This document shows positions 10,811-55,376 of a stretch of DNA of 64,000 nucleotides, piece by piece; position 1 is the first letter of the stretch, and every line of letters begins with the position of its first letter. The notes under the pieces were generated by a model. It worked only from the letters and a program-made list of their open reading frames with translations. It was not told where the DNA came from and searched no databases. The position numbers were made by a program, and so were the translations under genes. Origin of the DNA: Shigella phage Sf25; the sequence record MF327009, one strand, 5' to 3'.

Positions 10811-11226
10811 TCATATCATCGTTAGAAAGGAAAGTAAACAACTTTTTGAATTATTTTGCCCAGGGAGCCCAAGGCGGAGGGTCAAGATGGTATGAAGCTA
10901 GTTCTTCTAGAAGAGCATCTGGGGCTTCAATTCCATAATTCTGTAATACTATACGGTACTCTTTCTTATAATCACTAGAATCATTCTGGTTATTCGTAGA
11001 ATGATTATCTTCTAACATTCATATCATCGTTAGAAAGGAAAGTAAACAACTTTTTGAATTATTTTGCCCAGGGAGCCCAAGGCGGAGGGTCAAGATGGTA
11101 TGAAGCTAGTTCTTCTAGAAGAGCATCTGGGGCTTCAATTCCATAATTCTGTAATACTATACGGTACTCTTTCTTATAATCACTAGAATCATTCTGGTTA
11201 TTCGTAGAATGATTATCTTCTAACAT
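10811..11226. repeat. exact tandem duplication, 2 x 208 bp
   Basis: Unit tcatatcatcgttagaaagg...gattatcttctaacat occurs twice head-to-tail with no mismatch; covers codons 6-60 and 3' flank of the small ORF 11059..11241. Confidence 0.85.
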
Positions 11227-13530: not shown

Positions 13531-14308
13531 TTAATAGCCTCGATCTTGACGAGCGAAGTTTTCAGCATTTTTCAGATAATAAAGTTTAAAGATTTCCTCA
13601 GCTGACATTCCAAGAGCAATGAATTTATTCATGAAAAAGTGAAATTGGTCAATCAGTTCAAATTTAATTTCAAGCTGATCTTCAGGAGATAAGTCTTGAA
13701 TTTTCTTGGATTGCATTTCAGAATAACGTTTCTTCCAAGGTTTCCATACAGCAGAAGCTTCTTTTTCACCATTACTCATACCACCAAGAGAAGTATATAG
13801 CTCGCGAGTTTCATCTGCGATATAATCGTCTTGGTTTCGCAACCAAGCAAGAACTTCTCCTGCAGTTTCAAGTGAATCAGGATGACGATTTGTTTCTGGT
13901 TTATCATTAGCCAAACGAATCTGTAAATGCCGCTGCATGTCAAATTTTCTTGGATTGCATTTCAGAATAACGTTTCTTCCAAGGTTTCCATACAGCAGAA
14001 GCTTCTTTTTCACCATTACTCATACCACCAAGAGAAGTATATAGCTCGCGAGTTTCATCTGCGATATAATCGTCTTGGTTTCGCAACCAAGCAAGAACTT
14101 CTCCTGCAGTTTCAAGTGAATCAGGATGACGATTTGTTTCTGGTTTATCATTAGCCAAACGAATCTGTAAATGCCGCTGCATGTCAAGCATAACCTGCAA
14201 TGGGTCAATACTGTGCATAATATACTCAGCATATGCACGATTTGCTTTATCAACACCTTCGATCAAATGAGCACATTCATTAAAGTGAGCCATTATTTTT
14301 CCTTTCAA
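13531..14308 (-). pseudogene. 56: dCTP pyrophosphatase gene 56 (MazG-like) disrupted by a 244-bp tandem duplication
   Basis: Two overlapping ORFs (13940..14308 and 13531..14016) share an identical 81-aa block; removing one repeat unit restores one ORF of about 171 aa at the gene 56 position between soc and dam. Confidence 0.7.
13699..14186. repeat. exact tandem duplication, 2 x 244 bp, inside gene 56
   Basis: Head-to-tail identical copies; unit length not a multiple of 3. Confidence 0.85.
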
Positions 14309-22536: not shown

Positions 22537-23381
22537 TCACCGTTATAATCTTTTTTCACAATATGAGTTTCGCCAGTATTCCACCAATGATCAACCAAGT
22601 AAAAATGACGAGAATATACATGAAGACTTCCAACATTCCATATAATAGAACCTGCTTTATACTGACGAGTTGAATCGCCGGCATTCAAATCAGATACTAA
22701 TTTATCTAATACGTATTTTTGCCATGCATAATCATTACGGAATCCGAAGACCACGTCATTTGAGCGCATGCTTACTACTGCATTGACTTTCTTATCACGA
22801 ATCAGGTACTGTACTGTATTAGTACACATGAAATCTGACATACCATCTTTATTGTAGTCAAATTGCATGGATGGACGAGTCATGCTTACTACTGCATTGA
22901 CTTTCTTATCACGAATCAGGTACTGTACTGTATTAGTACACATGAAATCTGACATACCATCTTTATTGTAGTCAAATTGCATGGATGGACGAGTATAAAT
23001 CATGATACCACGTCGAGAATCAGGATTTTGACCAAGTTCAGCTAAACACATATCATACTGGGCATAGTTATCTTCTGACCAAATAGCCCAACCATAATTC
23101 GAGTTAATTTCGCCTTTAGAAGATGCTACCTGCTGCCAAATCTTTGGTGTTTCGCCTGGAATATCTTTGACAAACAGACTTTGAGACTTGTACCATTCAA
23201 GTTCACGCTGAATGTATTCATCATTAAGAGCGCCAAAAATAAAGGGTTCATCTGCTACAAATGATGCGCCAATAATTTCAATAGTTTTAACACCGGTTTT
23301 ATCAACTACGAAATCTTTTTCTTTTAATGCAAGCCCCAAATGAAGACGGATTTCTTCAACTGTCATAAAGTCACTAATCAT
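22527..23381 (-). CDS. 42: dCMP hydroxymethylase gp42 carrying an in-frame 38-aa tandem duplication (284 aa)
   Basis: Thymidylate-synthase-like fold; peptide VNAVVSMTRPSMQFDYNKDGMSDFMCTNTVQYLIRDKK occurs twice. Confidence 0.85.
   Translation of the reverse strand: MISDFMTVEEIRLHLGLALKEKDFVVDKTGVKTIEIIGASFVADEPFIFGALNDEYIQRELEWYKSQSLFVKDIPGETPKIWQQVASSKGEINSNYGWAIWSEDNYAQYDMCLAELGQNPDSRRGIMIYTRPSMQFDYNKDGMSDFMCTNTVQYLIRDKKVNAVVSMTRPSMQFDYNKDGMSDFMCTNTVQYLIRDKKVNAVVSMRSNDVVFGFRNDYAWQKYVLDKLVSDLNAGDSTRQYKAGSIIWNVGSLHVYSRHFYLVDHWWNTGETHIVKKDYNGEWK
22767..22994. repeat. exact tandem duplication, 2 x 114 bp, inside gene 42
   Basis: Identical head-to-tail copies, in frame. Confidence 0.85.
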
Positions 23382-24601: not shown

Positions 24602-27445
24602 TCAGCCAAACAGGAAGTCTAACGAAGCTTTTTCTTCATAGTCCATACCAGCCGATTCACACATGCCTGCAAGCGGTTTAACAAACGATTTTTGGAACAA
24701 AGTTGAGTAGTCAATCCAAGACAGTACGTCAGAACGAATTTCTTTTGGAAGTTCTGTACCCGACGGCCAAGCAATGCATTTGTCACCAAATGGATTTCCT
24801 TCACGCAATGGAAGAACCATTACTTTATTTCCATCCAAAATTGGAGCTACACCTAAACCGCTAACAGCTCGACGATAAGTTAGCACACCACGAATATGGA
24901 ACGGACATTTAAATCCTGGCCAACCTTTATCATCATATTTCGCTATATCGTTCGCAGTTTTTACTTCAGCAATAACTTTATAGTCAAGTTGACGATATTC
25001 TTTCTCGAAGTTCTTGTAATATTCTTGGACAGACTCTTCACCTTCCTGAAGAATACGACGAATACTTTCTTCGAGAGCTTCTTGGACCGCTTTAGGCGTT
25101 GAACTCTGCTGAGTTTCCATACCCATGATTTTTAGATGCGGTTCAGCAAATCGCTTATCTTCCATATCATATACGTTCAGAGCATAACGCTTTTTCGCTT
25201 TCCAAAATCCGCCAACGCCCTTTGAACCAAGTGGAGGGCAAGAAATAGCTTCACGGTCCATATGCATCAGATGCTCGCGGTTATTCATATAATCACATAA
25301 CTCACGATATGCAACATCAATCATAGGTTCCATCTTTTTCTTACCGAACTGATTCATGAATTCAACTAAATCGTTCTGCTCTTTGAATCGGTCAAGACCA
25401 ACTTTTTCAATAACTTTATCTACACAAACATATACCGAATCAGTATCACCTGCTGCAATGAAATCTTCGCCATTAGTTCCGCATACTTTATTCAGATATT
25501 CATTAATTTTACGAGCAATCCACTGAATACCAACTTGGCCGAAAATTGTGATAGCAGTAGCATTTCGCAAATCATAGTAACGGAAATGAATATTACCAAG
25601 AGCACCATAAAGACTGTTAATAAGAATTTTACGGTTCAGCTGATTTGTGTTAGCAAGTGTAGCTGCTTTTTCACACTCTTCGATCAAACTATTAAGAACA
25701 GATTCGGTGTAATTCGATAGTTCATTTAAGAAATCATCACTGAACTTAACATATCGTTCAACTTCTGGTTTAGTTGAGCAAGACCCTGCGCCTTTCATAA
25801 TAATCTTTTTAATAGCTTCGGCATTCATTTCTTCAGCGAACATTTTCTTTTTCCAATCTTTACGCTGGAAAAATACTTTAGCGATTTCCTTTGGAATGAT
25901 ACCTTCTTGATGCTTATCATACATCCATCCATTCGGAGAACAAGAATATTCATCACTCGGTTTAGGAGCTGTTCCTGCGATATATTCATGAATTGGATGA
26001 ACTTTAAACTGACCACGAATAGTCTCAGGACTAATGTTAACCTGACGAATAATGCTCGGATACAGAGACGTCAAGTCAAAACTCATAATATATCGACGAG
26101 CAATTGGTTTAGGTTCAAACACAAATGCACCCGGAAAACTCTGTTTAACGTGCGAACCTTGTTGAGGAATAACCTTATGTTCACCTTTCAATGAGTTAAA
26201 AATAATAGCATCCCAAGTTTTAATAGGACTCATTACACCGGAAAAAGGCATTTTAGCGTAATAAGACATACTTAAAACTAGATCGATAAACCCGCGAATT
26301 TTATCAATTGCTTGAACTGATTCTACGTCAATGATGTTATAACTAATGTATCGTTGATGATTAGTCTCACGAAGTTTATTAATAGGACCGTCGTATGGTA
26401 ATTTACCTTTTTTGGTTTCATGTTGAGCAACTGATTCCAAAGAGAATGACGGCAAATTAGTAAAAGCGAATTTCTTGTACAAATCTAAATAATCAAGAAT
26501 AGATACGCCATCAATAGAATAAATTTCTTTGCTGCCGTACATATTTTGAATTAGTTTGGATTTTACCCGACCGATTGGAGAGAAACGTTTCATACTGCGT
26601 TCGCCTAGAATCATTTTAACACGATTCATGATATATGGAACGTCAAACCCCTCAATATTCCAACCGGTAAAAATAGCAGGTCGTTTCTGTTCCCAGAGAT
26701 TGATATATTCCATGAGCATATCACGCTCATTATCGAATGGCATATAAATTACTCGGTCAAGAATTTCTTGAGGAACTTCATCACCACCTTCACAGTCAAG
26801 CTTAGCAGCTAACTTTGCATCCCATTTTGATACTGAACCGTACATTGAATTCAAAAGGTCGAAAACATAAAAACGATCGTCAATTGAATCGTAATGAGTG
26901 ATAGCATCAATTTCATATTCAGCTTTCATTGGGTCAGGAAATTTATCACCAGTAACCTCAATGTCACAGTTAGCTACACGAACACCGTACATTGAATTCA
27001 AAAGGTCGAAAACATAAAAACGATCGTCAATTGAATCGTAATGAGTGATAGCATCAATTTCATATTCAGCTTTCATTGGGTCAGGAAATTTATCACCAGT
27101 AACCTCAATGTCACAGTTAGCTACACGAACAAATTTTCGGTCATAAACAATTTCTGAACCATATGTATCACTGATATAAGCGAGTTTAAAATCGTTCATA
27201 CCGAGAGCTTCGAGACCGATGTCTTCCATTCGCTTCATCCAATCTCGAGCATCTTTCATTGATGGAAATTTTTGAGGAGCGCAGTTTTTACCATAGATGT
27301 CTTTGTACTTTGACTCTTCCTTACAATGCCTAAACATAGTTGGAAGATATTCTACTTCACGAGTACGTTCCTTTCCATTTTCATCAATATAACGTTCAAC
27401 AATATTATTTCCGACTGTTTCAATAGAGATATAAAATTCTTTCAT
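24602..27445 (-). CDS. 43: DNA polymerase gp43 (family B) carrying an in-frame 49-aa tandem duplication (947 aa)
   Basis: Exo I (CDIEVTG), DTDS polymerase motif, KKRY; T4 gp43 is 898 aa; duplicated block RVANCDIEVTG...LLNSMYG. Confidence 0.95.
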   Translation of the reverse strand: MKEFYISIETVGNNIVERYIDENGKERTREVEYLPTMFRHCKEESKYKDIYGKNCAPQKFPSMKDARDWMKRMEDIGLEALGMNDFKLAYISDTYGSEIVYDRKFVRVANCDIEVTGDKFPDPMKAEYEIDAITHYDSIDDRFYVFDLLNSMYGVRVANCDIEVTGDKFPDPMKAEYEIDAITHYDSIDDRFYVFDLLNSMYGSVSKWDAKLAAKLDCEGGDEVPQEILDRVIYMPFDNERDMLMEYINLWEQKRPAIFTGWNIEGFDVPYIMNRVKMILGERSMKRFSPIGRVKSKLIQNMYGSKEIYSIDGVSILDYLDLYKKFAFTNLPSFSLESVAQHETKKGKLPYDGPINKLRETNHQRYISYNIIDVESVQAIDKIRGFIDLVLSMSYYAKMPFSGVMSPIKTWDAIIFNSLKGEHKVIPQQGSHVKQSFPGAFVFEPKPIARRYIMSFDLTSLYPSIIRQVNISPETIRGQFKVHPIHEYIAGTAPKPSDEYSCSPNGWMYDKHQEGIIPKEIAKVFFQRKDWKKKMFAEEMNAEAIKKIIMKGAGSCSTKPEVERYVKFSDDFLNELSNYTESVLNSLIEECEKAATLANTNQLNRKILINSLYGALGNIHFRYYDLRNATAITIFGQVGIQWIARKINEYLNKVCGTNGEDFIAAGDTDSVYVCVDKVIEKVGLDRFKEQNDLVEFMNQFGKKKMEPMIDVAYRELCDYMNNREHLMHMDREAISCPPLGSKGVGGFWKAKKRYALNVYDMEDKRFAEPHLKIMGMETQQSSTPKAVQEALEESIRRILQEGEESVQEYYKNFEKEYRQLDYKVIAEVKTANDIAKYDDKGWPGFKCPFHIRGVLTYRRAVSGLGVAPILDGNKVMVLPLREGNPFGDKCIAWPSGTELPKEIRSDVLSWIDYSTLFQKSFVKPLAGMCESAGMDYEEKASLDFLFG
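26837..27130. repeat. exact tandem duplication, 2 x 147 bp, inside gene 43
   Basis: Identical copies, in frame; includes the Exo I motif. Confidence 0.85.
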
Positions 27446-36196: not shown

Positions 36197-36197
36197 A

Positions 36198-36963: not shown

Positions 36964-37035
36964 CTCTTAGCTCAATTCATAGATCTATTATATCATAATA
37001 TTTGAAGATCTATCTTAAAGCATAGAGGATATCAG

Positions 37036-37517: not shown

Positions 37518-37519
37518 AA

Positions 37520-37846: not shown

Positions 37847-37881
37847 ACATTATCCTCAATTGCGTTAAAATTTTATTATCC

Positions 37882-37900
37882 AAAAAGGGCCGAAGCCCTT
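37882..37900 (-). terminator. hairpin terminator-like element
   Basis: AAGGGC-TTCG-GCCCTT hairpin in intergenic region. Confidence 0.45.
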
Positions 37901-38099
37901 AGCTAAACTTTTTGGCACCCTTCCAGCCTTCATACATCATTGCGGCTGATATTAATATTGCTCCTGAGCATTTTGAATATTTGGTATTCCAAAACCAGTT
38001 TAGAAAAACTTCGTCATCAATACCTTGGGCTATCATGTTTTCAAAGAACTGACGACGAGCTTCAGCAATTCGTTGTGATAATTTAGATTCAGGATTCAT
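37899..38099 (-). CDS. hypothetical protein
   Basis: ORF track. Confidence 0.35.
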   Translation of the reverse strand: MNPESKLSQRIAEARRQFFENMIAQGIDDEVFLNWFWNTKYSKCSGAILISAAMMYEGWKGAKKFS

Positions 38100-38237
38100 T
38101 TAAATTTTCCAGTTACCGTTTTCATCAATAAATTCAATCCAGTCATTTACTGACCACTTAGTTGTATCGCCTTTGGGGCAGAATTTAAAGTGTATAACCC
38201 CTGCTTAAAAAGCATTCGTTTGATATTCATATTTTCC

Positions 38238-38570
38238 TCAACTGTAACGATAACATTTGTTTGATTTACGTTTTGCAACACGATGAGAAGTATTGTAATC
38301 CAAATCATCCTCAACGTATACATCTTTTTTCAACTGACGAACTTCTTTACGCAGTTGACGATTCATCTCATTCTTGACTTCTGAATCAACGCCATAAAAA
38401 CGTTTCCATTTGTCCGAACGGAAGATATTTTTATTCAAAGTTTCTTCTGATACACCGTCAGGTGCTTTACGTCTAGCCATGCAATTAAAATCTTTAGAAG
38501 ACAATTCTTTACGACGATACGTTTTACCCATGGAGTTTAATTTCCTTAGCAACTGAACTAAATGCAGCAC
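38238..38570 (-). CDS. hypothetical basic protein
   Basis: ORF track. Confidence 0.4.
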   Translation of the reverse strand: MLHLVQLLRKLNSMGKTYRRKELSSKDFNCMARRKAPDGVSEETLNKNIFRSDKWKRFYGVDSEVKNEMNRQLRKEVRQLKKDVYVEDDLDYNTSHRVAKRKSNKCYRYS

Positions 38571-38706
38571 GATCGCAAATCATGCGTTTATGTAACTTGA
38601 GTATAATATAGCAAACTTCAAAACTATTTACATGAGTAACACGAACAGCATTACCATTAATGAGATAATACTGTCCCTTTTTAATTTCTTTATCAACCAC
38701 AACCAT
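38524..38706 (-). CDS. hypothetical protein
   Basis: ORF track. Confidence 0.3.
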   Translation of the reverse strand: MVVVDKEIKKGQYYLINGNAVRVTHVNSFEVCYIILKLHKRMICDRAAFSSVAKEIKLHG

Positions 38707-38864
38707 ATCAATTCCTCAAAGGTAATTCATATGTTAATAATACCACGGTTTGAACTTGTTGTAAACAACTTTGTGAAAAATATTTTAGGGAATGATAAGA
38801 AAGGAACGATAGCTTAGAATGGTAATATACAGAATGCGAGAAAGAAAGGCCCAGAGGGCCCGTC

Positions 38865-39502: not shown

Positions 39503-39973
39503 TTAATCATGTTTCCACACCCCATCGGTATTTGACCAAAGTCGCTGATTATCTGATCCTCGCCACAGCTTTTTGGTCGGAAGATTTTTCTCATACTTCC
39601 CATCAATAATAACATCAACATATTTAAGCATTTCTAGTTGTTTAATATCTTCAAATTTATATCCTGTCCACAACCAAATGCTTTTATTGGGATAAAGATT
39701 TTTTACTGTTTGAACAATGCAATGAACAACATCTCGGTTATCAGGATAGAGAGGGTCTCCTCCAGTTATAGTTAATCCTTCTATATAATCATTATTCAAA
39801 CATTCAATTAATTGTTCTAGTGTTTCACCAGTGAATGGAACACCGTTTCTAGCGTTCCATGTTGATTTATTATAACACCCTTCGCATTTATGCAAACAAC
39901 CTGTAACGAAAAGAACGACCCTGCAACCAGGGCCATTCACAAAATCACAAGGATAAAATCTATCATAATTCAT
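39503..39973 (-). CDS. nrdG: anaerobic ribonucleotide reductase activating protein NrdG (radical SAM), 156 aa
   Basis: CxxxCxxC cluster (CLHKCEGC); stop/start overlap with nrdD. Confidence 0.85.
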   Translation of the reverse strand: MNYDRFYPCDFVNGPGCRVVLFVTGCLHKCEGCYNKSTWNARNGVPFTGETLEQLIECLNNDYIEGLTITGGDPLYPDNRDVVHCIVQTVKNLYPNKSIWLWTGYKFEDIKQLEMLKYVDVIIDGKYEKNLPTKKLWRGSDNQRLWSNTDGVWKHD

Positions 39974-40227
39974 TGATGCTTAACCCTATGCATGATTTCT
40001 TTATTTTTACCGAGATTAAATCCGCGCTCGTTAGGATTTCCCAAATAACCAACACCCTTCGCATTTATGCAAACAACCTGTAACGAAAAGAACGACCCTG
40101 CAACCAGGGCCATTCACAAAATCACAAGGATAAAATCTATCATAATTCATTGATGCTTAACCCTATGCATGATTTCTTTATTTTTACCGAGATTAAATCC
40201 GCGCTCGTTAGGATTTCCCAAATAACC
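39874..40227. repeat. exact tandem duplication, 2 x 177 bp, at the nrdD/nrdG junction
   Basis: Identical copies; second copy carries an orphan duplicate of the nrdG start region and a duplicate nrdD 3' end. Confidence 0.8.
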
Positions 40228-41964
40228 GCATGTTCTTCTTATAGTATTCATCTTTTTGGGATCAGTTTCTCCACAAATAGAACAAACAAATCCGTTTTCA
40301 GTAGGAGTCATTTCATGGGTGCTTCCGCATGTAAAACATTTATCTACTGGCATATTAACACCAAAATAATCTAAATGTTGTGCAGCATAATCCCATACGG
40401 CCTCAAGACCTTTTAAGTTATTTTTCATATCAGGAAGTTCAACATAAGAAATGTGACCGCCTGTCGCAATGAAATGATATGGGGCTTCGCGAGAAATCTT
40501 TTCAAACGGAGTAATATTTTCTTCTACTGAAACATGGAAACTGTTAGTGTACCAACCTTTATCGGTAACATCTTTTACGCTTCCATATTTTTCTGTATCG
40601 AGTTTACAGAAGCGATAGCACAGGTTTTCAGCGGGAGTAGAATACAAGCTAAAAGCAAATCCAGTTCTTTCAGTCCACTGTTTAAGATGAGCATTCATTT
40701 TAGTTAAAATTTCTCGTCCAATATCACGACCGACAAGAATATTCAATTCGTGAATACCAATGTATCCTAAAGACACTGAACTTCTACCGTTTTTAAATAA
40801 CTCAATTATGTCGTCATCAGGTTTAAGACGAACCCCGAATGCACCTTCTTGGTAAAGAATAGGAGCAACAGTAGCTTTAACTCCTTTTAAGGAACTAATT
40901 CTACACATCAAAGCTTCAAAACATAAATCCATTCGTTCATTGAATAATTCAGCAAATTTCTGTTCATTGAACTGTGTTCCAATATAAGAATCTAACGCGA
41001 TGCGAGGAAGATTCAGTGTTACAACACCAAGATTATTACGTCCATCAAGAATTTCATTACCAGTCGAATCTTTCCATACGCTCAAGAAACTACGGCAACC
41101 CATTGGAGAAACAGGAACAGATGAACCAGTGATAGCTTTATTGTTCTTAGCTGAAATAATATCAGGATACATCCTTTTGCTTGCACACTCTAGAGCAAGC
41201 TGCTTAATATCATAGTTCGGATCGTCTTTGTAAAGATTAACGCCTTCTTCGACGAACATAACAAGCTTAGGAAAAATAGGAGTTATCCCATCACGACCGA
41301 GACCTTTAATACGATTTTTCAGAATTGCTTTCTGAATCATTCGTTCAGTCCAGTCAGTTCCCGTACCAAATGTAATTGTTACAAAAGGCGTTTGCCCGTT
41401 TGAACTAAAGAGAGTATTTACTTCATATTCATAAGCTTGAAATGCATCGTATACGTCTTTTTCTGTTTTAGATTGAGCATAATTCAACGCATCAGCGATT
41501 TGCCATTTTTCTGCATCCTCAATATGTTTTGCATAGGTGCGTTTAACATAAGGAGAAAGTACTTTATCTACATTCGCAAAAGTCGTTCCGCCGTATTGGT
41601 GAGAAGCAACCTGTGCAGTAATTTGTGCCATAATTGCAGTAGCAACGCCAATTGATTTAGGAGTTTCAATCTGTGCATTACCAAGCTTAAATCCGTTCTC
41701 AAGCATTCCTTTTAAATCTACTAAACAGCAATTAGTAAATGGAAGAGCAGGGGAATAATCAATATCGTGGAAATGGATAATTCCGCTTTCATGTGCTTTC
41801 ATAATAAAAGACGGGACCATATTTTTGGCAATGTGTTTAGACACAATACCAGCCATAAGGTCCCGTTGAGTTGGAAAAACACGAGAATCTTTATTAGCAT
41901 TCTCGTTTAAAAGGTCTTTATTAGTTTTATGAATCAATCCTTCAATTTCTTTTTCAATTGTCAT
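40147..41964 (-). CDS. nrdD: anaerobic ribonucleoside-triphosphate reductase NrdD, intronless (605 aa)
   Basis: C-terminal glycyl-radical and zinc-ribbon region (CFTCGSTHEM...CSICG); continuous ORF. Confidence 0.9.
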   Translation of the reverse strand: MTIEKEIEGLIHKTNKDLLNENANKDSRVFPTQRDLMAGIVSKHIAKNMVPSFIMKAHESGIIHFHDIDYSPALPFTNCCLVDLKGMLENGFKLGNAQIETPKSIGVATAIMAQITAQVASHQYGGTTFANVDKVLSPYVKRTYAKHIEDAEKWQIADALNYAQSKTEKDVYDAFQAYEYEVNTLFSSNGQTPFVTITFGTGTDWTERMIQKAILKNRIKGLGRDGITPIFPKLVMFVEEGVNLYKDDPNYDIKQLALECASKRMYPDIISAKNNKAITGSSVPVSPMGCRSFLSVWKDSTGNEILDGRNNLGVVTLNLPRIALDSYIGTQFNEQKFAELFNERMDLCFEALMCRISSLKGVKATVAPILYQEGAFGVRLKPDDDIIELFKNGRSSVSLGYIGIHELNILVGRDIGREILTKMNAHLKQWTERTGFAFSLYSTPAENLCYRFCKLDTEKYGSVKDVTDKGWYTNSFHVSVEENITPFEKISREAPYHFIATGGHISYVELPDMKNNLKGLEAVWDYAAQHLDYFGVNMPVDKCFTCGSTHEMTPTENGFVCSICGETDPKKMNTIRRTCGYLGNPNERGFNLGKNKEIMHRVKHQ

Positions 41965-42434
41965 TTTAAACTCTTTCTAAGCTGCTTCTTAAATGAAGCT
42001 ATTAACTGTGTTTTAGTGTCAGATTCATTATATTCAAATCCTCTTTGAAGCATCTCGGCCATCATTTCCTCTTTTCCTAAACGAGAAAATTCCTTTGATT
42101 TATCTCCAACAAAGTTAGGGTGAATATTATTTTGGGTGTAATCGGATTTTAAATAAGTAAGTAAATTTTCTAACCATTCAAGATAATCAACACCTTGTCC
42201 CTTTAAGCCAGAACGATTAAATTTGTGCTTCATTTGACCTTCTGTGGCATTGCAGAGATTACAAAGCAATCCACGTACTTTTCCTGCTTTTGGTCCATTT
42301 AATTCATGGTCATGGTCGAGGTGATTAGCTTGAACGTCAGGATTTAGTTCTCGTTGGCAAATTAAGCATTTACCGTTTTGTGCATCATAAAATTTCTGTT
42401 TTTCTTCTTTATATAATTTGCCAGTCAATAACAT
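41961..42434 (-). CDS. 49: endonuclease VII (Holliday junction resolvase gp49), 157 aa
   Basis: Zn-binding CLICQ...HLDHDH...CNLCN motif; T4 gp49 length. Confidence 0.85.
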   Translation of the reverse strand: MLLTGKLYKEEKQKFYDAQNGKCLICQRELNPDVQANHLDHDHELNGPKAGKVRGLLCNLCNATEGQMKHKFNRSGLKGQGVDYLEWLENLLTYLKSDYTQNNIHPNFVGDKSKEFSRLGKEEMMAEMLQRGFEYNESDTKTQLIASFKKQLRKSLK

Positions 42435-42476
42435 AATAAAACCCTTACCTTAAATAGATAAGGGTATTTATTATTT

Positions 42477-42980
42477 TCAAGTATTGTAAAACATTTGATT
42501 CAATCGCTTATATTGCCGAATCTTTTGGTCAGAAAAAGAAATTTGAGTTTCAAGCCATTCAATATATTCTGCCGCAGCTTGCATCAAATTTCCTTCATAG
42601 CCATCGTTATTTTCTTGTGCAGCTAATTTAGCTAATGCATATGAAATACGTTCACCTTGAAAATCGGCTTTAGGCTTCTGAACAACTTGATTAGTTCGCT
42701 CTACAACTTCTTCAATTTCGCCATTTTCGACTGATTCAGTATTCCACAAGCACCAATACGTAATTGGCTTATCGTAGATGTTAATAATCTTTCCATCAGA
42801 AAGTTCAATTTCAATAATTCCAGTGTCAGGCTCTATATCATCTTCACATTCTTTTGCAAGTTCACGAACTTTAAAGACAGTACCTGCACTAAGTTCCGGC
42901 CAGTAATTACACAGCCCTTTATCAGCACGATTAATTCTAAACCACTTATTTACTGCAATCATGTCCCATCTCCATATCAA
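42477..42980 (-). CDS. hypothetical protein (pin-region position)
   Basis: ORF track. Confidence 0.4.
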   Translation of the reverse strand: MIWRWDMIAVNKWFRINRADKGLCNYWPELSAGTVFKVRELAKECEDDIEPDTGIIEIELSDGKIINIYDKPITYWCLWNTESVENGEIEEVVERTNQVVQKPKADFQGERISYALAKLAAQENNDGYEGNLMQAAAEYIEWLETQISFSDQKIRQYKRLNQMFYNT

Positions 42981-43085
42981 TTAAGTCATTTATTGTTGGT
43001 TCATTATATACTGTTTCTTCATCAGTGTAAACCGGTTCTTCCGGCTCTGGCTCTACAGTTTCCCATCTAGCCGCCCACCAAGGTT

Positions 43086-43406
43086 TTATAGCGTAATCCA
43101 TTCTCGTACTGTCTGAGTTACTACACGTTCACGGGGCTCGACTAGTTCAACAGTCGGAACTGCATAATACCAGTCAGAATGATAAGAACCTGAGCGAGTT
43201 TCATTTACGGAAACATGTACATTGTGTTTTGGACTAAAATAAACACACTGACGATATTGGCATTTACCATCTTGCACCCAGTCTTCTATTTCGATAGGTT
43301 TAAGATAATCCGAAAAATCGAAATCATAATTTTCTGAAAATGCATCATGGTCTTCGATGATTTCACTCAGAACTGCATCAACATCTAATTTATTTTCAAT
43401 ATTCAT
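43086..43406 (-). CDS. hypothetical acidic protein
   Basis: ORF track. Confidence 0.4.
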   Translation of the reverse strand: MNIENKLDVDAVLSEIIEDHDAFSENYDFDFSDYLKPIEIEDWVQDGKCQYRQCVYFSPKHNVHVSVNETRSGSYHSDWYYAVPTVELVEPRERVVTQTVREWITL

Positions 43407-43416
43407 TTTTCACCAA

Positions 43417-43626
43417 TTAATTTCGCAATTTATTAAGTTCTTCATAATCAATCCATGATTCTAGTCCTGATGGCAAATCAGATTCAATTTCCCAAAGAAG
43501 TTCTTCAATTTTCTGAAGACGATCTAGTTCTTCAGCAGGAATAGTAACCATTGACGGAGTTCTTGATACGCTAATATCGTAAATCATATTTACCCCAGTT
43601 TGACCATACAATCGCCGTATTTCCAT
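43417..43626 (-). CDS. hypothetical protein
   Basis: ORF track. Confidence 0.35.
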   Translation of the reverse strand: MEIRRLYGQTGVNMIYDISVSRTPSMVTIPAEELDRLQKIEELLWEIESDLPSGLESWIDYEELNKLRN

Positions 43627-43805
43627 TTAGAAATAGACTTTTCACCATTAGAATAATAAACTTCGAGTTTAGCACGGTTATTTTTAATTTGAATAACTTT
43701 GGCTGTCATCAAAGTTCCATAACCATAGTAAACTGCGACTTCATCACCTACATATACCGCGCTTCCGCGGTAGTCATGGATATAATCAGTTCCTTCGAGC
43801 ATCAT
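43590..43805 (-). CDS. hypothetical protein
   Basis: ORF track. Confidence 0.35.
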   Translation of the reverse strand: MMLEGTDYIHDYRGSAVYVGDEVAVYYGYGTLMTAKVIQIKNNRAKLEVYYSNGEKSISKWKYGDCMVKLG

Positions 43806-44065
43806 TTAAAGTATTCCCGCAATTGGTCAAATCCACCAATATGACTTCCATCAGGAGCAAATACTTGTGGCATCGTCAAACCAATTTGAGTATCACGACC
43901 TAGTTTCGTCAGAAGCTCAGCAATTTTCTCATCATCAAAAACACCTTTTTCCGGCATAATGTTGATAAATTCAAACGGCTGTTTCTTTACAGTCAAAAGA
44001 CGTTTTGCATTATCGCAATACACACATTTATGGATGTTGCTATTATAACCATATACTTTAAACAT
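43802..44065 (-). CDS. nrdC: thioredoxin/glutaredoxin NrdC, 87 aa
   Basis: CVYC active site, 87 aa as T4 NrdC. Confidence 0.8.
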   Translation of the reverse strand: MFKVYGYNSNIHKCVYCDNAKRLLTVKKQPFEFINIMPEKGVFDDEKIAELLTKLGRDTQIGLTMPQVFAPDGSHIGGFDQLREYFK

Positions 44066-44066
44066 A

Positions 44067-44309
44067 TTATTCCTTAATTCCTAGTACTTGTTTAAAAGTC
44101 TCGTCGTAATCAAGACTTTGACCCGTTTGTTCTTTATGTTTGTATATAATATCACTTACTTCTGATAGCATATTTTTATATGAACGAGTTAAAGCAGATT
44201 TAAGCACGCTGTATCTATCAGGAAATTTACCATGTTCATTATAATAAGCTATTGCTAATTCACGGACTGCCTTTTCAGCAGCCTCCATATATTCTTTACG
44301 CTTGGTCAT
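44067..44309 (-). CDS. hypothetical protein
   Basis: ORF track. Confidence 0.4.
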
Positions 44310-44311
44310 TT

Positions 44312-44701
44312 TTAATCCAAAATATTATTAGGCATTGGTTGAACACTCACAAGTTCTTTAAAGAACTCAGTAGAGTCAGGCAATTTAACCATTTCCGGAG
44401 CATGCTTACTGAATTTATGTTTACATTGACGGCATTTATATTCAAGCTCTGGTTTACGCCAGTTAATCAATTGAACTTGTTCAGTACCGCATTCAGGGCA
44501 ATTAGGAACGTTTTTAGAAGCCCTTTCACGACGTTCAACCATAACCATAATAGCATCCCATGCTGGAGGTTTAAAATCTAAATCGTCGCAGCCGTGAATC
44601 TTTCCACGCATTTCCATATCATCTTCCTCACCAGCCATAATAATTTTAATTAAACTGGAATTACTTGAAGCTGCAATGTCTTCTAATAAACGCTTTTTCA
44701 T
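44312..44701 (-). CDS. zinc-ribbon containing hypothetical protein
   Basis: CPECG...CRQCKHKF. Confidence 0.45.
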
Positions 44702-45447
44702 TTCAATACCTCAATAGCATTACGTAAACCATTTGCTTTTGCATTAAGAGCTTTTAACAATTTGGTGTGTTCTGCAATTTGGGCTTCAACTTCAATCAAA
44801 CGGGCATTGAGATATTCACGTTCTTCACTCAGATTATCAACCTTTTCTACTTTAGGCTCTTTTACAACTGTCTTATATGTATTAGGGTTCTTCAGTTTAA
44901 TTAGAATGCGTGAACTGTATAACATTGAACCATTATCTTCGGTTTCGTCATACATTTCCACTACGTCCATAATTTTTAACATCATGCGGAGTTTATAAGA
45001 CAACGAACGAATAGTTTTGTTGTGCTTATTAATTTCTTTAGCTGTCATGGTGCCAAGATTACGTGAGTAATAATAAGGAACCTGGATATTAATTAATACT
45101 GATGAACCACCTGGCTTGTGTGTTACTTCATCAGCAATAACCCAGTCCTTAACATGAACTGTATTTGTACGGTCATCGCCCGCGGTAAATAGTTTGCGAG
45201 CATGCTTAAAAAGCATATTCACTTGGTCATTGAATTGACAAGCAAATTTATCAGCAAATTTAGTTTCAGGAATGGTAGAAAACCAATCAGCCAAATGAGT
45301 CTTTTTAACATCATTAACAATAGTAAATTCAACCAAATCGGTTATAGATGTCTCAGATTTAATGAAGCTCGGCTTCATAAAGTTTTTAATGTTCTCATGA
45401 GCTACAGTAGAAGATAACATACGAGAACGTTTAAACCATTCAAGCAA
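44698..45447 (-). CDS. hypothetical protein with C-terminal coiled coil
   Basis: C-terminal heptad-rich segment. Confidence 0.45.
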   Translation of the reverse strand: MLEWFKRSRMLSSTVAHENIKNFMKPSFIKSETSITDLVEFTIVNDVKKTHLADWFSTIPETKFADKFACQFNDQVNMLFKHARKLFTAGDDRTNTVHVKDWVIADEVTHKPGGSSVLINIQVPYYYSRNLGTMTAKEINKHNKTIRSLSYKLRMMLKIMDVVEMYDETEDNGSMLYSSRILIKLKNPNTYKTVVKEPKVEKVDNLSEEREYLNARLIEVEAQIAEHTKLLKALNAKANGLRNAIEVLK

Positions 45448-45632
45448 ATTGCCTAACGAATGAGAATAAGCGTTTTGAGTATCTTTACAGATATGATTTT
45501 CCTGACCAACATATTGAAGGAAATCACGAAGAATATTATTGATTACTGCTCTGTGTCCTATCTGATAATTACGATGTTTAGTAATAAGACTGTGGTTAAT
45601 GGTTTATACTCCGAGCCATACTTGGCTTTAAA

Positions 45633-46934
45633 TTACTTAATTAACTGTAAAGCTTGTTCAAGACGATCAAGACGATTAACGGATTCTTCCCAAATCTTTT
45701 TAGCACTTTCATATTCTTTTTCTGCTTTATTTTTAATTTCTAAAGCTTCTTTATAAGCTTTTTCTAGTGCAATAACTTCTGGACGAATTTCTATTGGCTC
45801 AGGAGAATCATCGAGCCAATCCATCAATTCTTCAAGTGTGGTTTCTTCTTTAGGAGCATTCACAATTTCTTCACATTTCTTCTGATGAATTTCTTTATCT
45901 GTTAGTGAATAAGCACATTTCACTTCACGAAGACTAATTACAATTTTATATCCTTCCCATCCGCATATATTCTTAAAAGGATATGTATGAATATTTTCTA
46001 CTGTTTCCATACAAAGTAATGCAGTCTCTAACTGACGAGTTATAGTGCTAGCAATTGAGAAAAATTTATTAATATTCTTTTGGTTAGCGTTTGGTGTAAA
46101 AAATCCATAATTCACAAAAATAGCTACTTTATTTTCATCAAGCTCATATTCTAGTGAATAAGCACATTTCACTTCACGAAGACTAATTACAATTTTATAT
46201 CCTTCCCATCCGCATATATTCTTAAAAGGATATGTATGAATATTTTCTACTGTTTCCATACAAAGTAATGCAGTCTCTAACTGACGAGTTATAGTGCTAG
46301 CAATTGAGAAAAATTTATTAATATTCTTTTGGTTAGCGTTTGGTGTAAAAAATCCATAATTCACAAAAATAGCTACTTTATTTTCATCAAGCTCATATTC
46401 TTTTACGATAATCATATCAGAAGCCAAAGGATGAATTTGACGATAATCGCCATAACATAATTTAGAAGCTGATTTTAGAATTTGTCCTTTGAAAAGTCTG
46501 AAATTACTAATCCAACGACGAGTAAAAATATTCTCAGGGTCTTCTTTATTATTAAGATGATAAGAATTAACATCACCGAACCAATTATATCCTACTACAT
46601 CTTTGGTTCGTTTAATTTCTTTCCCAAAATTACCAAGAATATCCCGATTAACCAAATATGAAAGAAGACGAGACTCTTTAAAGGTTTTCTTGATATTATC
46701 TTTATCTACACGGCTAGAAATTTTACGAATTTCATGAATAAATTTAGTAGAAGAAACAATACTTGCATCAACACTATTGAGCCATTGATTGATAATGGAA
46801 AGAACGATATTTTGACCAAACATCGGTATAGCTTTATCATCAATAACGCTATTGAATGATTTGATATATTCGTTACGAGTCATATTAATCTCCTCAGTAG
46901 AAAGTAAGAACATTATACCACATCCTTGTGGCAA
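45633..46934 (-). CDS. hypothetical protein with C-terminal coiled coil, carrying an in-frame 83-aa tandem duplication
   Basis: Block EYELDENKVAIFVNYGFF...REVKCAYSL repeated twice; shares FRLFKGQILKSASKL-like motif with next ORF. Confidence 0.5.
   Translation of the reverse strand: MPQGCGIMFLLSTEEINMTRNEYIKSFNSVIDDKAIPMFGQNIVLSIINQWLNSVDASIVSSTKFIHEIRKISSRVDKDNIKKTFKESRLLSYLVNRDILGNFGKEIKRTKDVVGYNWFGDVNSYHLNNKEDPENIFTRRWISNFRLFKGQILKSASKLCYGDYRQIHPLASDMIIVKEYELDENKVAIFVNYGFFTPNANQKNINKFFSIASTITRQLETALLCMETVENIHTYPFKNICGWEGYKIVISLREVKCAYSLEYELDENKVAIFVNYGFFTPNANQKNINKFFSIASTITRQLETALLCMETVENIHTYPFKNICGWEGYKIVISLREVKCAYSLTDKEIHQKKCEEIVNAPKEETTLEELMDWLDDSPEPIEIRPEVIALEKAYKEALEIKNKAEKEYESAKKIWEESVNRLDRLEQALQLIK
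45903..46400. repeat. exact tandem duplication, 2 x 249 bp
   Basis: Identical head-to-tail copies, in frame. Confidence 0.85.
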
Positions 46935-46941
46935 AGTAAAC
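46912..46941 (-). promoter_or_regulatory. early-promoter-like site
   Basis: Minus strand reads GTTTAC-N17-TGGTATAATG. Confidence 0.45.
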
Positions 46942-48215
46942 TAGTTCAGTGCATTTAGTGCATTGTTCAGTTTAGAACGTTGCTTCGTGAGATTTTTGAC
47001 TTTTTCTTGTGCTTTTTCTAGCATCTTTTCAGCTTCTAACACTTCATTGGTCGCTTTAACGAGTTCATCATCTACTGCCTTAAGGGACTTCTCAATCGCA
47101 TCCGCGTGCCATTTTTCAACAGGTTTAAGACTCGGATTTTCAATAGGAAGAAAATTCACTTTATTGAATTTCCATGCATCTTTATTACCTGAACTATACA
47201 TCCAAAATTTAGGATCGTTTGATGAGTAATTGGATAAATTTAAATTTAAGTTATCTTGCACTTCTTGCTTTTTCTCTTGCGTGACTTCGTCCTTTCTCAA
47301 AAAATCGTATTTAAATGAAACGATCATATCAAGTTCATATGTTGTTGTGTCTAATTTAAATCGTTCGAAATGCTGTGAAATCTTAGACTGAATAGGAAGA
47401 AAATTCACTTTATTGAATTTCCATGCATCTTTATTACCTGAACTATACATCCAAAATTTAGGATCGTTTGATGAGTAATTGGATAAATTTAAATTTAAGT
47501 TATCTTGCACTTCTTGCTTTTTCTCTTGCGTGACTTCGTCCTTTCTCAAAAAATCGTATTTAAATGAAACGATCATATCAAGTTCATATGTTGTTGTGTC
47601 TAATTTAAATCGTTCGAAATGCTGTGAAATCTTAGACTGAACAGCAGCAACAACATCCATATACTTAAATGCTTCTGTCAACTGTGATTTAAGACATTCG
47701 CAAATTGAAAGAGAATTTTTTGTATTAGGTTTAAAGCTAATTCGTGCAGTTCTATTATTTTCTTTTAATGGTCTTACTTCCATCTGAAGAGTATAACCAT
47801 CAAATTTCAGGTTCTTTAAGTTAATATCAGAACCTTTTAATCGACTCGCAGTTGATAAAATTTGCTTTAATTGTCTACGGAATAGAGCAATAAATCTCCA
47901 TTCAATACGATAATGATTTGGATTGAAAAATCCAGATGATAAATCGACCTTACTTTGACCAACGCCTTGAACAAATAGAGGATTTTTATAATCAATAGTT
48001 TTACAGAAATCGGTTAGCTGCTCACGAGCAGTCATTTGTGTAATATACCCCGCTTTACTAAAATGACGTAACCATTCACTGCTATTCATATATTTAAAGT
48101 GAATATCACGATTAACTTTATCAGGGTCTAAATTATTTTGGCACAAAAATGTCATAACATCACGAGTATAGCTGGCATTACGAATCATATCTTCAATTTG
48201 AGAACGAGTTTTCAT
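46941..48215 (-). CDS. hypothetical protein with C-terminal coiled coil, carrying an in-frame 83-aa tandem duplication
   Basis: Block QSKISQHFERFKLDTTTYEL...KVNFLPI repeated twice. Confidence 0.5.
   Translation of the reverse strand: MKTRSQIEDMIRNASYTRDVMTFLCQNNLDPDKVNRDIHFKYMNSSEWLRHFSKAGYITQMTAREQLTDFCKTIDYKNPLFVQGVGQSKVDLSSGFFNPNHYRIEWRFIALFRRQLKQILSTASRLKGSDINLKNLKFDGYTLQMEVRPLKENNRTARISFKPNTKNSLSICECLKSQLTEAFKYMDVVAAVQSKISQHFERFKLDTTTYELDMIVSFKYDFLRKDEVTQEKKQEVQDNLNLNLSNYSSNDPKFWMYSSGNKDAWKFNKVNFLPIQSKISQHFERFKLDTTTYELDMIVSFKYDFLRKDEVTQEKKQEVQDNLNLNLSNYSSNDPKFWMYSSGNKDAWKFNKVNFLPIENPSLKPVEKWHADAIEKSLKAVDDELVKATNEVLEAEKMLEKAQEKVKNLTKQRSKLNNALNALN
47142..47639. repeat. exact tandem duplication, 2 x 249 bp
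   Basis: Identical head-to-tail copies, in frame. Confidence 0.85.
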
Positions 48216-48223
48216 GGTGTTCC

Positions 48224-49381
48224 TTAAGATTTAAGTAAATCAACAATTTTAATTAACTTTTCACGCTCGGATTTAGCTTTACTACTCAGTCCAGATAGTC
48301 TGAAAATTTCATCATCATATTGTTGAATAGAAATATTCAGCTCTTCAATCTGTTTATTAAAATAATCAATTTGTTCAGAATGTTTTTCGTTACTACGAAC
48401 TGGTACAGGTTTTGTAGGCAATTTAGTTGAACTGGATTCATCCGGGCGATAAATTAAAATACAACTTGAACCAATAGGGCATTTTGCACCAGATGAATAT
48501 TCTAATGTTCCAGCTTCTTTTAAAACTTCAAAAGCTAAACAGAGATGATGCCCCATATTAACATAATCTGTAGAGTGAGCTCTGATCAGCTCTTCAATCT
48601 GTTTATTAAAATAATCAATTTGTTCAGAATGTTTTTCGTTACTACGAACTGGTACAGGTTTTGTAGGCAATTTAGTTGAACTGGATTCATCCGGGCGATA
48701 AATTAAAATACAACTTGAACCAATAGGGCATTTTGCACCAGATGAATATTCTAATGTTCCAGCTTCTTTTAAAACTTCAAAAGCTAAACAGAGATGATGC
48801 CCCATATTAACATAATCTGTAGAGTGAGCTCTGATGTAATAATCATCTCCACGAATACTAAATTTAAAGCATTTAAGGTCTTCTGTATTATTGGTCTTAA
48901 AAATCATTTGTTTATCTAGACCTTTAGCTAATCGAGCGCCTAATGCTAATAATCGTCGTTGATTTTCCCACAAATCCGCAATCATTTGATCGAATGATAA
49001 TTTCGGCATTAGTCGACCATAAAGGTCATATCCTTTATTATAATTGCGAAGGATTTCACTCGCATTAATACGAGACAACGCTCCAATTTTATTAAGGGCT
49101 TTCATGATGCGATTAGATAAACCCATTCCAGACCCGTTTGTTCGTTGTAAATGTTTATCTAATCCAAACCCAATATCAACTTTAAATTTATCTAAAATTT
49201 CAGCATGAACATCTCTGTCAATAACATTCAAATCCAAAGTTTGGTTAAATCTATGAAAAAATTTATCTGGCTCTCCACGACGAAGTACAGTCCATTCATT
49301 CAATTTTTTATTAACTAAAGATTTAATTACTGCATTGACATTATTAATTACTACTGACATATTTTCCTCACTCAATTTCAA
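48224..49381 (-). CDS. hypothetical protein with C-terminal coiled coil, carrying an in-frame 83-aa tandem duplication
   Basis: Block IRAHSTDYVNMGHHLCLAFEV...NKQIEEL repeated twice. Confidence 0.5.
   Translation of the reverse strand: MKLSEENMSVVINNVNAVIKSLVNKKLNEWTVLRRGEPDKFFHRFNQTLDLNVIDRDVHAEILDKFKVDIGFGLDKHLQRTNGSGMGLSNRIMKALNKIGALSRINASEILRNYNKGYDLYGRLMPKLSFDQMIADLWENQRRLLALGARLAKGLDKQMIFKTNNTEDLKCFKFSIRGDDYYIRAHSTDYVNMGHHLCLAFEVLKEAGTLEYSSGAKCPIGSSCILIYRPDESSSTKLPTKPVPVRSNEKHSEQIDYFNKQIEELIRAHSTDYVNMGHHLCLAFEVLKEAGTLEYSSGAKCPIGSSCILIYRPDESSSTKLPTKPVPVRSNEKHSEQIDYFNKQIEELNISIQQYDDEIFRLSGLSSKAKSEREKLIKIVDLLKS
48337..48834. repeat. exact tandem duplication, 2 x 249 bp
   Basis: Identical head-to-tail copies, in frame. 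Confidence 0.85.
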
Positions 49382-49775
49382 TTTTACTAAATATACAGAA
49401 TAAGATGGAACAGACTATATAAGCACCACACACAGATTGAACTAATACCATTCCAAAGAACCAAACAATATTATCAAACAATGTCTGTTTTACGTCGAAA
49501 GGACGTAAACTTACAGTAATATTATCGCCTTTTTCTATTGATGAATACATCTCTGGTGAAATATATTCGCTAAATCTATAACCGTCTTTGAGTTCATATA
49601 CGGCAATAAACGATAAACTAGACCCCTTTACTTGAGTTCCTGTAAGGGTATTAACTACAGTAACATCATAATCTTTATAATGCATATAATCATTAATTGC
49701 GTAATAACCATATGCAACTACTACACATAAACAACATATCAATAAATTCAATCTTTTAATTATCAACTGTTTCAT
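49368..49775 (-). CDS. membrane protein
   Basis: N- and C-terminal hydrophobic helices. Confidence 0.4.
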   Translation of the reverse strand: MKQLIIKRLNLLICCLCVVVAYGYYAINDYMHYKDYDVTVVNTLTGTQVKGSSLSFIAVYELKDGYRFSEYISPEMYSSIEKGDNITVSLRPFDVKQTLFDNIVWFFGMVLVQSVCGAYIVCSILFCIFSKIEIE

Positions 49776-49830: not shown

Positions 49831-50358
49831 TTATGCGAGTACCGTCTTTAACCGTTCTTCAAACTTCCGAAGAGTATTCTGGCGTTCAGCTCTTTGCTTT
49901 TTATAAGTTTCAATACGCTCTGAAATGAGAGTGTATCGTTCATTTACTGATTCTTTCATAAAATCAGGAATTTCACGAGAAGCTTTAATCTCGTCAAATT
50001 TATCAATAACAGCTTGCTCTTCAGCAATTAAGTTATCATACATCAAAATATCTTTCTTGATGAACTCAATATCTTCTTGAGTTACACGAGATAATTTAGA
50101 TGCTTTATCCTTTTTGTACTGTTCGTTAGTATCACGAGACCAGTGTAATGTACGATTTTTATTCGTATTCTTGTAAATTTCTACAATACCAATCTCATCA
50201 ATAATAACGATCCAATTCCAACGTGATTTGTAAATTTGTCCTCCATCAACAGTGATTTCACCTCCGATTGAGATGTCGTTAAAGAACTTGCTTTGTGCTT
50301 CAGATTTAAATTTACCATCGTTGTAATTTACCAAGTTGAAAATATCTTTAGCGTTCAT
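49831..50358 (-). CDS. hypothetical protein with C-terminal coiled coil
   Basis: ORF track. Confidence 0.4.
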   Translation of the reverse strand: MNAKDIFNLVNYNDGKFKSEAQSKFFNDISIGGEITVDGGQIYKSRWNWIVIIDEIGIVEIYKNTNKNRTLHWSRDTNEQYKKDKASKLSRVTQEDIEFIKKDILMYDNLIAEEQAVIDKFDEIKASREIPDFMKESVNERYTLISERIETYKKQRAERQNTLRKFEERLKTVLA

Positions 50359-50418
50359 TTTCTGTTCCTCCGTAGTTGATAGTTGTATAGTACCACAGAG
50401 GAACAGTCTTGTAAACCA

Positions 50419-50733
50419 CTAAAAGAAACTTCTTTCACAATTTTTTCCACTGAACCATGCACTTACCGCTTTCTTAGTCTCAGGAGCAGTGTTATCCATA
50501 AACCATTCAAAGGCAGCCTTTTTATGATTCTGGAGGGCTTCTCGGGCTTTAATCTGCTCACGGTCTATTAACACTAACATATGAGCCTTTCTTGTCACCA
50601 TGGGCTTCTTATGATTTTTTGAATACTCCCAGTCATTTGTCCATCGCATTGTCGTTGCGAACTGAAATACTGCTTCTTTAATTTTAGTTTCGTAAATTTC
50701 ACGAGCCTTTGAGTATAACATCATTACCTCCAT
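50419..50733 (-). CDS. hypothetical protein
   Basis: ORF track. Confidence 0.4.
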   Translation of the reverse strand: MEVMMLYSKAREIYETKIKEAVFQFATTMRWTNDWEYSKNHKKPMVTRKAHMLVLIDREQIKAREALQNHKKAAFEWFMDNTAPETKKAVSAWFSGKNCERSFF

Positions 50734-50822: not shown

Positions 50823-51857
50823 TTATTTCAGAAGAGTAACCTCAGCAATTTCTTCCCAACCGTTTTTGTCGGTCATAATAAAGTCAGCAAGATAAAGAGC
50901 AGTACGCAGTGAAACATTGCGTAAACGATTAACATTAACTTTCATCCATGATAATGCTTTATAAGTTTCTTCATCAGAAAGACCGCGCTTTTGCATCATG
51001 TCAGTTGAAAGAATAACATCTTCAACCCTGACCATAATTTCTTCATTAGTGTGAACACCCAAATCTAAATAAACCGAGCGGGACACTAATGCTTGTAAAT
51101 GTGGAGCAAGTTTAGTACCACGGTCTAATTCGCGGTCAATGTCAACGTTTGTGATAAAAACAATCGTTCCTTTAAATTCAAACTCACGCTCAATGCCTTT
51201 TTCTTCTAAGTAAGAAGACGCAGTGCTCCAGCAGACTTTACGGGTCTCTCCAGTGTCCAGAGCGGCTTTTAGAAGATTAAGAATGTCCATATCAGAGAAA
51301 ACATCCACATCATCAATCAAAAGGACAGAATTCTCTTCACGATTATTCCAAAGCTGTTCATAAAGACCGATACCAGAGATTTTACCATTAATGCTTTTAT
51401 ATTCAATGTATCCAATATCATTTGCTTTATTTAAAGCTTTATCTAAAGAATACGTTTTACCAATACCTGCTGCACCAGAGATAATTAATGAACGAATGTT
51501 TCCGTTAATAATACCATTCGTCATCATTCCCATAACATTAAATCTTTTATTAATGCGGGTTTTCATATCTTCATACGATTCTTTAACTTCTTCAACTTTT
51601 ACACCATCATATGAAATGTCTGATTTGTAAACCCAAACACCGCGACGCTTACCGTCAATTTCAACAAAAACTTTACCATCTCCTTGCGCATCTACTGGAG
51701 CATTATCAGGGAACCACTCACCTAAGAGTTCAAAAGTTCCAGAGATTTCTTTGCCAAAGTAGATACCCTTATTGATAGTTACAGTTTTCATTTTATTCTC
51801 CAAATCCGCATCAGTTGATAGTTGTATAGTACCATAAAGCTTTATGCTTGTAAACAA
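50823..51857 (-). CDS. AAA+/P-loop ATPase
   Basis: Walker A GAAGIGKT, Walker B LLIDDVD. Confidence 0.55.
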   Translation of the reverse strand: MFTSIKLYGTIQLSTDADLENKMKTVTINKGIYFGKEISGTFELLGEWFPDNAPVDAQGDGKVFVEIDGKRRGVWVYKSDISYDGVKVEEVKESYEDMKTRINKRFNVMGMMTNGIINGNIRSLIISGAAGIGKTYSLDKALNKANDIGYIEYKSINGKISGIGLYEQLWNNREENSVLLIDDVDVFSDMDILNLLKAALDTGETRKVCWSTASSYLEEKGIEREFEFKGTIVFITNVDIDRELDRGTKLAPHLQALVSRSVYLDLGVHTNEEIMVRVEDVILSTDMMQKRGLSDEETYKALSWMKVNVNRLRNVSLRTALYLADFIMTDKNGWEEIAEVTLLK

Positions 51858-51879
51858 CTTTGTGAAAAAATTTTGAAAT

Positions 51880-54465: not shown

Positions 54466-54795
54466 AATTACATACTCCTTTGAATAATATCAATAATGTT
54501 GTTCACCAAATTATACGTAAACATTGGGTAATTATATTGAATCATCACATACACAACAAACAAAACTTTCATTCTCTTCTCCTTAGCAGTTGACAAGATT
54601 ACTATACCATAACCTTGCCAACTTGTAAACCATTAAATGACGTTTTCAATAAAATTCTGAAGCTTTGTGTGAGCATCAACCATGATTTTCATTTCTTCCT
54701 TTGCGAAAGCTGTACCTCTTTCCCTAGCAGAATACTCATAATCAGAAACTGCATTAGCATATTCTTCAATTAGCTTCATTAAAAACATCTGCTTT

Positions 54796-55363: not shown

Positions 55364-55376
55364 GATGTTCTCCTCT

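Follow-up and report, generated by a model that had tools for sequence, protein, structure and literature searches.

As deposited, the NrdC.4 homolog of Shigella phage Sf25 contains a 249-bp segment written twice, head to tail. Does the phage itself carry a duplicated protein module, or does the repeat belong only to the record? The window analysed here is a 64-kb stretch of the 168,573-bp Sf25 record and covers the early-gene region of this Tequatrovirus (T4-like phage), from gene 39 to e.2. Tandem Repeats Finder and direct string comparison both gave 2.0 copies of a 249-nt unit at 100% identity (45903-46151 = 46152-46400), which cannot be a chance occurrence. According to the ORF list, the repeat lies in frame within the minus-strand ORF 45633..46934. 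The gene and the two copies are:

45633..46883, minus strand: NrdC.4 homolog, deposited CDS (Sf25_gp218, AUV63498.1; exact match), 416 aa, with an ATG start at 46883
45903..46151, minus strand: copy 1 of the 249-bp unit, coding for the second 83-aa block of the minus-strand protein
46152..46400, minus strand: copy 2 of the 249-bp unit; the junction between 46151 and 46152 reads TTTTCATCAAGCTCATATTC/TAGTGAATAAGCACATTTCA

The repeated block comprises 83 aa (EYELDENKV...REVKCAYSL) and is present as residues 162-244 and again as residues 245-327. Without the duplication the protein has 333 aa, the usual length for its family. An earlier note on this DNA had reported a perfect, in-frame tandem duplication at 45903-46400 and had placed the gene at the head of a run of three neighbouring genes, each with a duplication of 249 bp. 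The first observation was confirmed by the identity of the copies and the reading frame of the 83-aa block. The second is also correct, the three genes being homologs of NrdC.4, NrdC.5, and NrdC.6 of T4 (gene names were taken from the annotation of Shigella phage Sf24). The latter two are the next genes upstream of the NrdC.4 homolog, on the same strand:

47142..47639, minus strand: perfect duplication, two copies of 249 bp, in the NrdC.5 homolog (46941-48215; Sf25_gp219, AUV63499.1), 424 aa against 341 aa
48337..48834, minus strand: perfect duplication, two copies of 249 bp, in the NrdC.6 homolog (48224-49360; Sf25_gp220, AUV63500.1), 378 aa against 295 aa

Each of these duplications adds 83 aa in frame, and each has its own, unrelated sequence. 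De-duplicated NrdC.5 matched DUF7235 and phrog_2351 at full length, while the NrdC.6 homolog belongs to phrog_2257. Pairwise comparison of NrdC.4, NrdC.5, and NrdC.6 revealed no significant similarity (E >= 1). The 249-bp unit begins at residue 162 in NrdC.4, 193 in NrdC.5, and 176 in NrdC.6, and its distance to the stop-codon end of the gene is 270, 201, and 113 nt, respectively. Homologous positions in paralogous genes were considered for the three units and dismissed on the basis of the differing starts and end distances and the lack of pairwise similarity. Because the units are unrelated, the proteins dissimilar, and the positions different, the shared length of 249 bp is a property of the generating process and not of the genes.

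Across the 64-kb window, eight perfect tandem duplications were identified, each consisting of exactly two copies with 100% identity. Their lengths are 114, 147, 177, 208, 244, 249, 249, and 249 bp, such that at least eight sites in this stretch have 114-249 nt written twice, head to tail. The five duplications beyond the three already noted are located at 10811, 13699, 22767, 26837, and 39874:

10811..11226, minus strand: 208 bp, two copies, from the 3' end of modA.2 across the intergenic promoter region into the 5' end of modB (Sf24 annotation)
13699..14186, minus strand: 244 bp, two copies, inside gene 56 (dCTPase)
22767..22994, minus strand: 114 bp, two copies, in gene 42 (dCMP hydroxymethylase; AUV63453.1, 284 aa against a family norm of 246 aa)
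26837..27130, minus strand: 147 bp, two copies, in gene 43 (DNA polymerase; AUV63457.1, 947 aa against 898 aa)
39874..40227, minus strand: 177 bp, two copies, from the 3' end of nrdD into the 5' end of nrdG (Sf24 annotation)

The 208-bp (modA.2/modB) and 177-bp (nrdD/nrdG) repeats cross gene boundaries, and intact copies of the genes remain. The other three lie within genes 56, 42, and 43, which established T4 genetics has shown to be essential. As 244 is not a multiple of 3, the repeat in gene 56 shifts the reading frame and breaks the 172-aa protein into two fragments, of 117 aa and 135/161 aa. The record lists these pieces as two proteins: AUV63439.1, a 117-aa ‘dCTP pyrophosphatase’, and AUV63438.1, a hypothetical protein of 135 aa. 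With the repeat collapsed, gp56 regains its normal 172 aa and is identical to a protein found on 55 contigs. In gp42, the duplication covers residues 130-167 (38 aa) and includes the FMCTN segment with Cys148. In gp43, it covers residues 106-154 (49 aa) and includes the D112-I-E114 motif. From established T4 biochemistry, we take the Cys148 segment of gp42 to be catalytic and D112-I-E114 of gp43 to be the Exo I motif. With gene 56 frameshifted and the cores of gp42 and gp43 disrupted, the sequence as deposited is implausible as that of a working phage.

These disruptions bear on the possibility that the duplications are genuine products of T4-type recombination, or of replication slippage, in the lineage of Sf25. 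Under this explanation NrdC.4 would contain a repeated 83-aa module, and independent events would have occurred in NrdC.5 and NrdC.6, possibly under anti-defence selection. In favour of it, all three 249-bp repeats are in frame. The genes nrdC.1-nrdC.11 form a non-essential accessory region in which NrdC.4-NrdC.6 are dispensable, so a real insertion there would be tolerable. Slight weight is added by the lengths, 6 of 8 being multiples of 3 (P ~0.02 if they are independent, ~0.2 if the three 249s represent one ceiling). Of the two that are not, one spans an intergenic region harmlessly, leaving gene 56 as the only frameshifted gene; this pattern might also be what selection on real duplications would leave. 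Against a genuine origin, equivalent repeats destroy the frame of gene 56 and interrupt the catalytic cores of gp42 and gp43, the two copies show zero divergence at all eight sites, and three unrelated units share an identical length, which no other unit among the eight exceeds.

T4 does make tandem amplifications readily, and its NrdC.5 restores infection on cells with the Dsr1 defence gene (Srikant et al. 2022, PMC9391042), so this gene block would be under arms-race selection. The dmd-tifA amplifications of T4 arise under selection and are accompanied by compensating deletions of 0.7-6 kb (Srikant et al. 2022, PMC9391042); the Hp17 amplifications of the same phage are credited to Wu et al. 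1991, as cited in PMC9391042. The Sf25 repeats resemble both in being head-to-tail, in a T4-type genome, and in a plastic accessory region. They differ in that the Sf25 units are gene fragments of 114-249 bp, present in two copies with 0-2 nt of homology, and that one of the events destroys gene 56. Genuine T4 amplifications typically show 6-10 bp of microhomology at their boundaries, with one copy kept between each repeat and the next (Srikant et al. 2022, PMC9391042).

We compared the Sf25 junctions with this signature. Junction homology, measured as periodicity continuing past two full units, was 0, 1, 0, 1, 0, 1, 2, and 1 nt at the eight sites (mean 0.75 nt). Simulated blunt copy-paste events of the same lengths, placed at random positions in the de-duplicated window, gave a mean of 0.79 nt and a probability of 0.003 per site for homology of 6 nt or more. 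Direct repeats of 6-10 bp at the unit boundaries were found at none of the eight junctions. Thus, the eight junctions do not look like products of the T4 microhomology mechanism. A genuine duplication in the Sf25 lineage is highly unlikely. If all eight were truly in Sf25 virion DNA, they would require a recent, microhomology-independent burst of duplications of at most 249 bp each, which we consider very improbable.

Comparison with related phages gave a consistent picture. Among the phages in the collection, Shigella phage Sf24 is closest to Sf25, with an identity of 93% to 99.8% that varies in blocks, and it has only one copy of each of the eight units. The 4.1-kb region containing the three 249-bp repeats matched 573 phage records, and it measures ~3.4 kb in all matches listed. 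When a 120-nt query across the junction was searched against phage records, it aligned in all matches listed solely as two pieces 248-249 nt apart. As these two pieces flank one unit, the unit is single copy in the records listed. The other members of the NrdC.4 90% protein cluster are likewise single copy, and the 63 NrdC.4 homolog clusters all have lengths of 299-343 aa, with 36-97% identity to the de-duplicated protein. For gp43 (a cluster of 436 members), the full-length members listed are all 898 aa, except for the 947-aa protein of Sf25. A search for perfect tandem duplications with a period of 30-1000 bp yielded none in ten loci (235 kb) of other T4-like genomes, which include the syntenic 66 kb of Sf24. 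Comparison with homologous genes in T2/T4-like genomes was one of the checks proposed in the earlier note; the single copy in Sf24, in the listed related records, in the other cluster members, and in the 63 homolog clusters speaks against a genuine duplication. The genuine gene-internal duplication that the note implied is thus unsupported, the repeat being one of eight blunt, identical-copy repeats in a single record.

Could the repeats have been added after deposition, by in silico editing of the sequence? Their regularity, with two copies, blunt ends, and capped lengths, would suit such an origin. However, the translated genes gave exact matches to six GenBank proteins of Sf25 (AUV63498.1, AUV63499.1, AUV63500.1, AUV63439.1, AUV63453.1, and AUV63457.1), and therefore the repeats belong to the assembly as deposited and are no later addition to the window. 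These GenBank/UniRef entries refute editing at 6 of the 8 sites. In addition, de-duplicated NrdC.4, NrdC.5, and NrdC.6 of Sf25 were not found in a collection of 15 billion proteins. The chance that the repeats were introduced by later editing is practically negligible.

The duplicated form is equally confined. The exact duplicated proteins, that of NrdC.4 included, are recorded on one contig only. The protein collection contained no Logan/SRA-derived copies of the NrdC.4 protein, whether duplicated or de-duplicated. Exact searches with 30-40-mers from the junction and boundaries gave no hits in IMG/VR, JGI metagenomes, or GTDB genomes.

Judging from these sequence comparisons, the 249-bp repeat is very probably an assembly artefact that was fixed in the deposited Sf25 genome and is absent from the phage itself. 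There are two identical copies, the repeat is found in one record only, such repeats recur with capped lengths, and essential genes are disrupted. The maximum of 249 bp is reached by 3 of the 8 units. A ceiling at this value suggests a limit set by 250-nt reads, the read length being our guess. An earlier paper crediting the same sequencing facility describes 2x150 reads and says nothing on Sf25.

We infer that untrimmed overlaps are the most likely mechanism. Adjacent contigs, or extensions derived from reads, would share an overlap that could reach one base less than a full read. The overlapping ends would then be joined end to end, or inserted at a finishing or gap-closing step, with the overlap left uncollapsed. 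Such uncollapsed overlaps would explain why the copies are identical and number exactly two, why the junctions are blunt, and why the lengths stop at a fixed maximum. Untrimmed-overlap and misjoin artefacts in deposited phage genomes resemble the Sf25 repeats in showing two identical head-to-tail copies with blunt junctions, many such repeats per record, a length bound near a read length, absence from relatives, and essential ORFs that are broken or lengthened. With De Bruijn assemblers, overlaps are usually of fixed k-1 length. In contrast, the Sf25 lengths vary from 114 to 249, a spread that suggests an overlap-layout or gap-closing step, or one done by hand.

Blunt junctions, perfect copies, and lengths bounded by reads or fragments would likewise be expected if physical but non-genomic molecules, either chimeric library fragments or minority defective or rearranged genomes, had been taken into the consensus. 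Such molecules need no viability, and broken essential genes would be tolerated. However, eight separate events must each win the consensus, and a ceiling hit three times suits a computational limit better than random chimeras. We regard this origin as extremely unlikely; for the record, its outcome would be the same as that of a join error, as the repeat would not be a feature of the phage.

For an assembly artefact, the placement of the units is also informative. Over 1637 nt, the eight units show 7 differences from Sf24, whereas the window as a whole averages 2.7% (permutation P = 0.014). Each unit adjoins a divergent flank, with a joint probability of ~3e-9 calculated from thresholds chosen after seeing the data. 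For each of the four longest units, one boundary lies no more than 6 nt from a difference between Sf24 and Sf25. Such a placement would be expected if the assembly broke where conserved islands end; we regard it as supportive and not decisive. A mixed-sample model, in which Sf24-like reads were co-assembled and breaks occurred at islands of identity, was retained as a possible sub-mechanism only, given many islands without duplication and the post hoc thresholds.

The relationship between the two phages is itself uneven. Blocks at approximately 14187-21950, 28213-38713, and 41890-44390 are essentially identical to Sf24 (0-2 differences per 500 nt) and alternate with blocks that are 3-15% divergent. 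Several duplications occur at or close to the edges of the near-identical blocks. These blocks could reflect natural mosaicism of co-isolated phages or cross-sample chimerism in the assembly. Four stretches had no megablast match to Sf24 (4896-5217, 27530-27747, 56839-56975, and 62095-62446) and represent small differences in gene content between Sf25 and Sf24 (indels or replacements), for example in the ipIV/denV region near 62.1-62.4 kb.

Once the repeat is collapsed, the NrdC.4 homolog conforms to its family. The de-duplicated protein matched phrog_1435, a family of unknown function, with E = 1e-165, aligning residues 1-333 to profile positions 1-334. It is thus a full-length, collinear member of the T4 NrdC.4 family, and it is located between nrdC.3 and nrdC.5, as in T4. 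All NrdC.4 homologs carry the precomputed Pfam assignment PF26897; a local Pfam scan of the de-duplicated Sf25 protein gave no match.

To relate the repeated unit to protein structure, we used an AlphaFold2 model of a single-copy homolog (P0024, 93% identical), built from a 37-sequence alignment with a mean pLDDT of 83. In the model, the N-terminal part is helical, the middle is alpha/beta, and a single long helix lies at the C-terminal end, continuous at residues 285-332 (pLDDT 75-87) in the single-copy protein. The earlier note had labelled the gene as coiled-coil, a plausible description to which this predicted helix gives indirect support. The unit at residues 162-244 runs from the last residue of the strand at 158-162 to the loop before the helix at 246. 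Boundaries at a strand end and in a loop would favour a genuine module duplication. The unit tracks the boundaries of structural elements only roughly, leaving out the partner strand of the first hairpin, and the predicted boundaries neither favour nor rule out a duplicated NrdC.4 protein that could fold. A common layout is seen in NrdC.4, NrdC.5, and NrdC.6, each of which has a helix-rich, charged C-terminal tail.

Several further observations concern the annotation of this region. NrdC.3 (44698-45447) and NrdC.4 (45633-46883) both belong to phrog_1435 and share 27% identity over 160 aa by BLASTP; on this similarity, they are neighbouring paralogs that have diverged. Homologs of the genes at 44698-49775 (NrdC.3-NrdC.7) are called ‘thioredoxin’ or ‘putative thioredoxin’ in many GenBank phage records. 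Scanning NrdC.3-NrdC.6 against Pfam and PHROGs gave no match to a thioredoxin family, and the label looks like a misannotation propagated from the neighbouring nrdC. The Sf25 database entry for the anti-defence candidate NrdC.5 (46941-48215) includes an apparently spurious 83-aa insertion.

The window also contains families of shorter, imperfect direct repeats (40-63 nt, 65-95% identity) directly upstream of minus-strand genes, with motifs such as GTAAACA...TATAGTACCA. These are probably T4-type early promoter regions:

3652-3733, 24411-24504, 38723-38785, 50342-50435, 51781-51874, 54568-54613, 55359-55404, and others: 40-63-nt repeats

If the eight duplications were real, they would imply an unknown mechanism of blunt-end duplication with a length limit. 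They would also mean that modules had been duplicated in the adjacent genes NrdC.4, NrdC.5, and NrdC.6, and that the phage tolerated a gene 56 in two pieces and extra residues in gp42 and gp43. In the phage, the gene very probably codes for a normal 333-aa member of the NrdC.4 family, whose function is unknown, and no new biology follows from the repeat. The consequence is one of data hygiene: the Sf25 genome and the UniRef/nr proteins derived from it appear to hold at least eight spurious insertions in a 64-kb stretch, affecting NrdC.4, NrdC.5, NrdC.6, dCMP hydroxymethylase, DNA polymerase, and a split dCTPase. Surveys of domain architecture, repeat discovery, catalogues of anti-defence genes, and polymerase phylogenies that draw on these entries would be misled.
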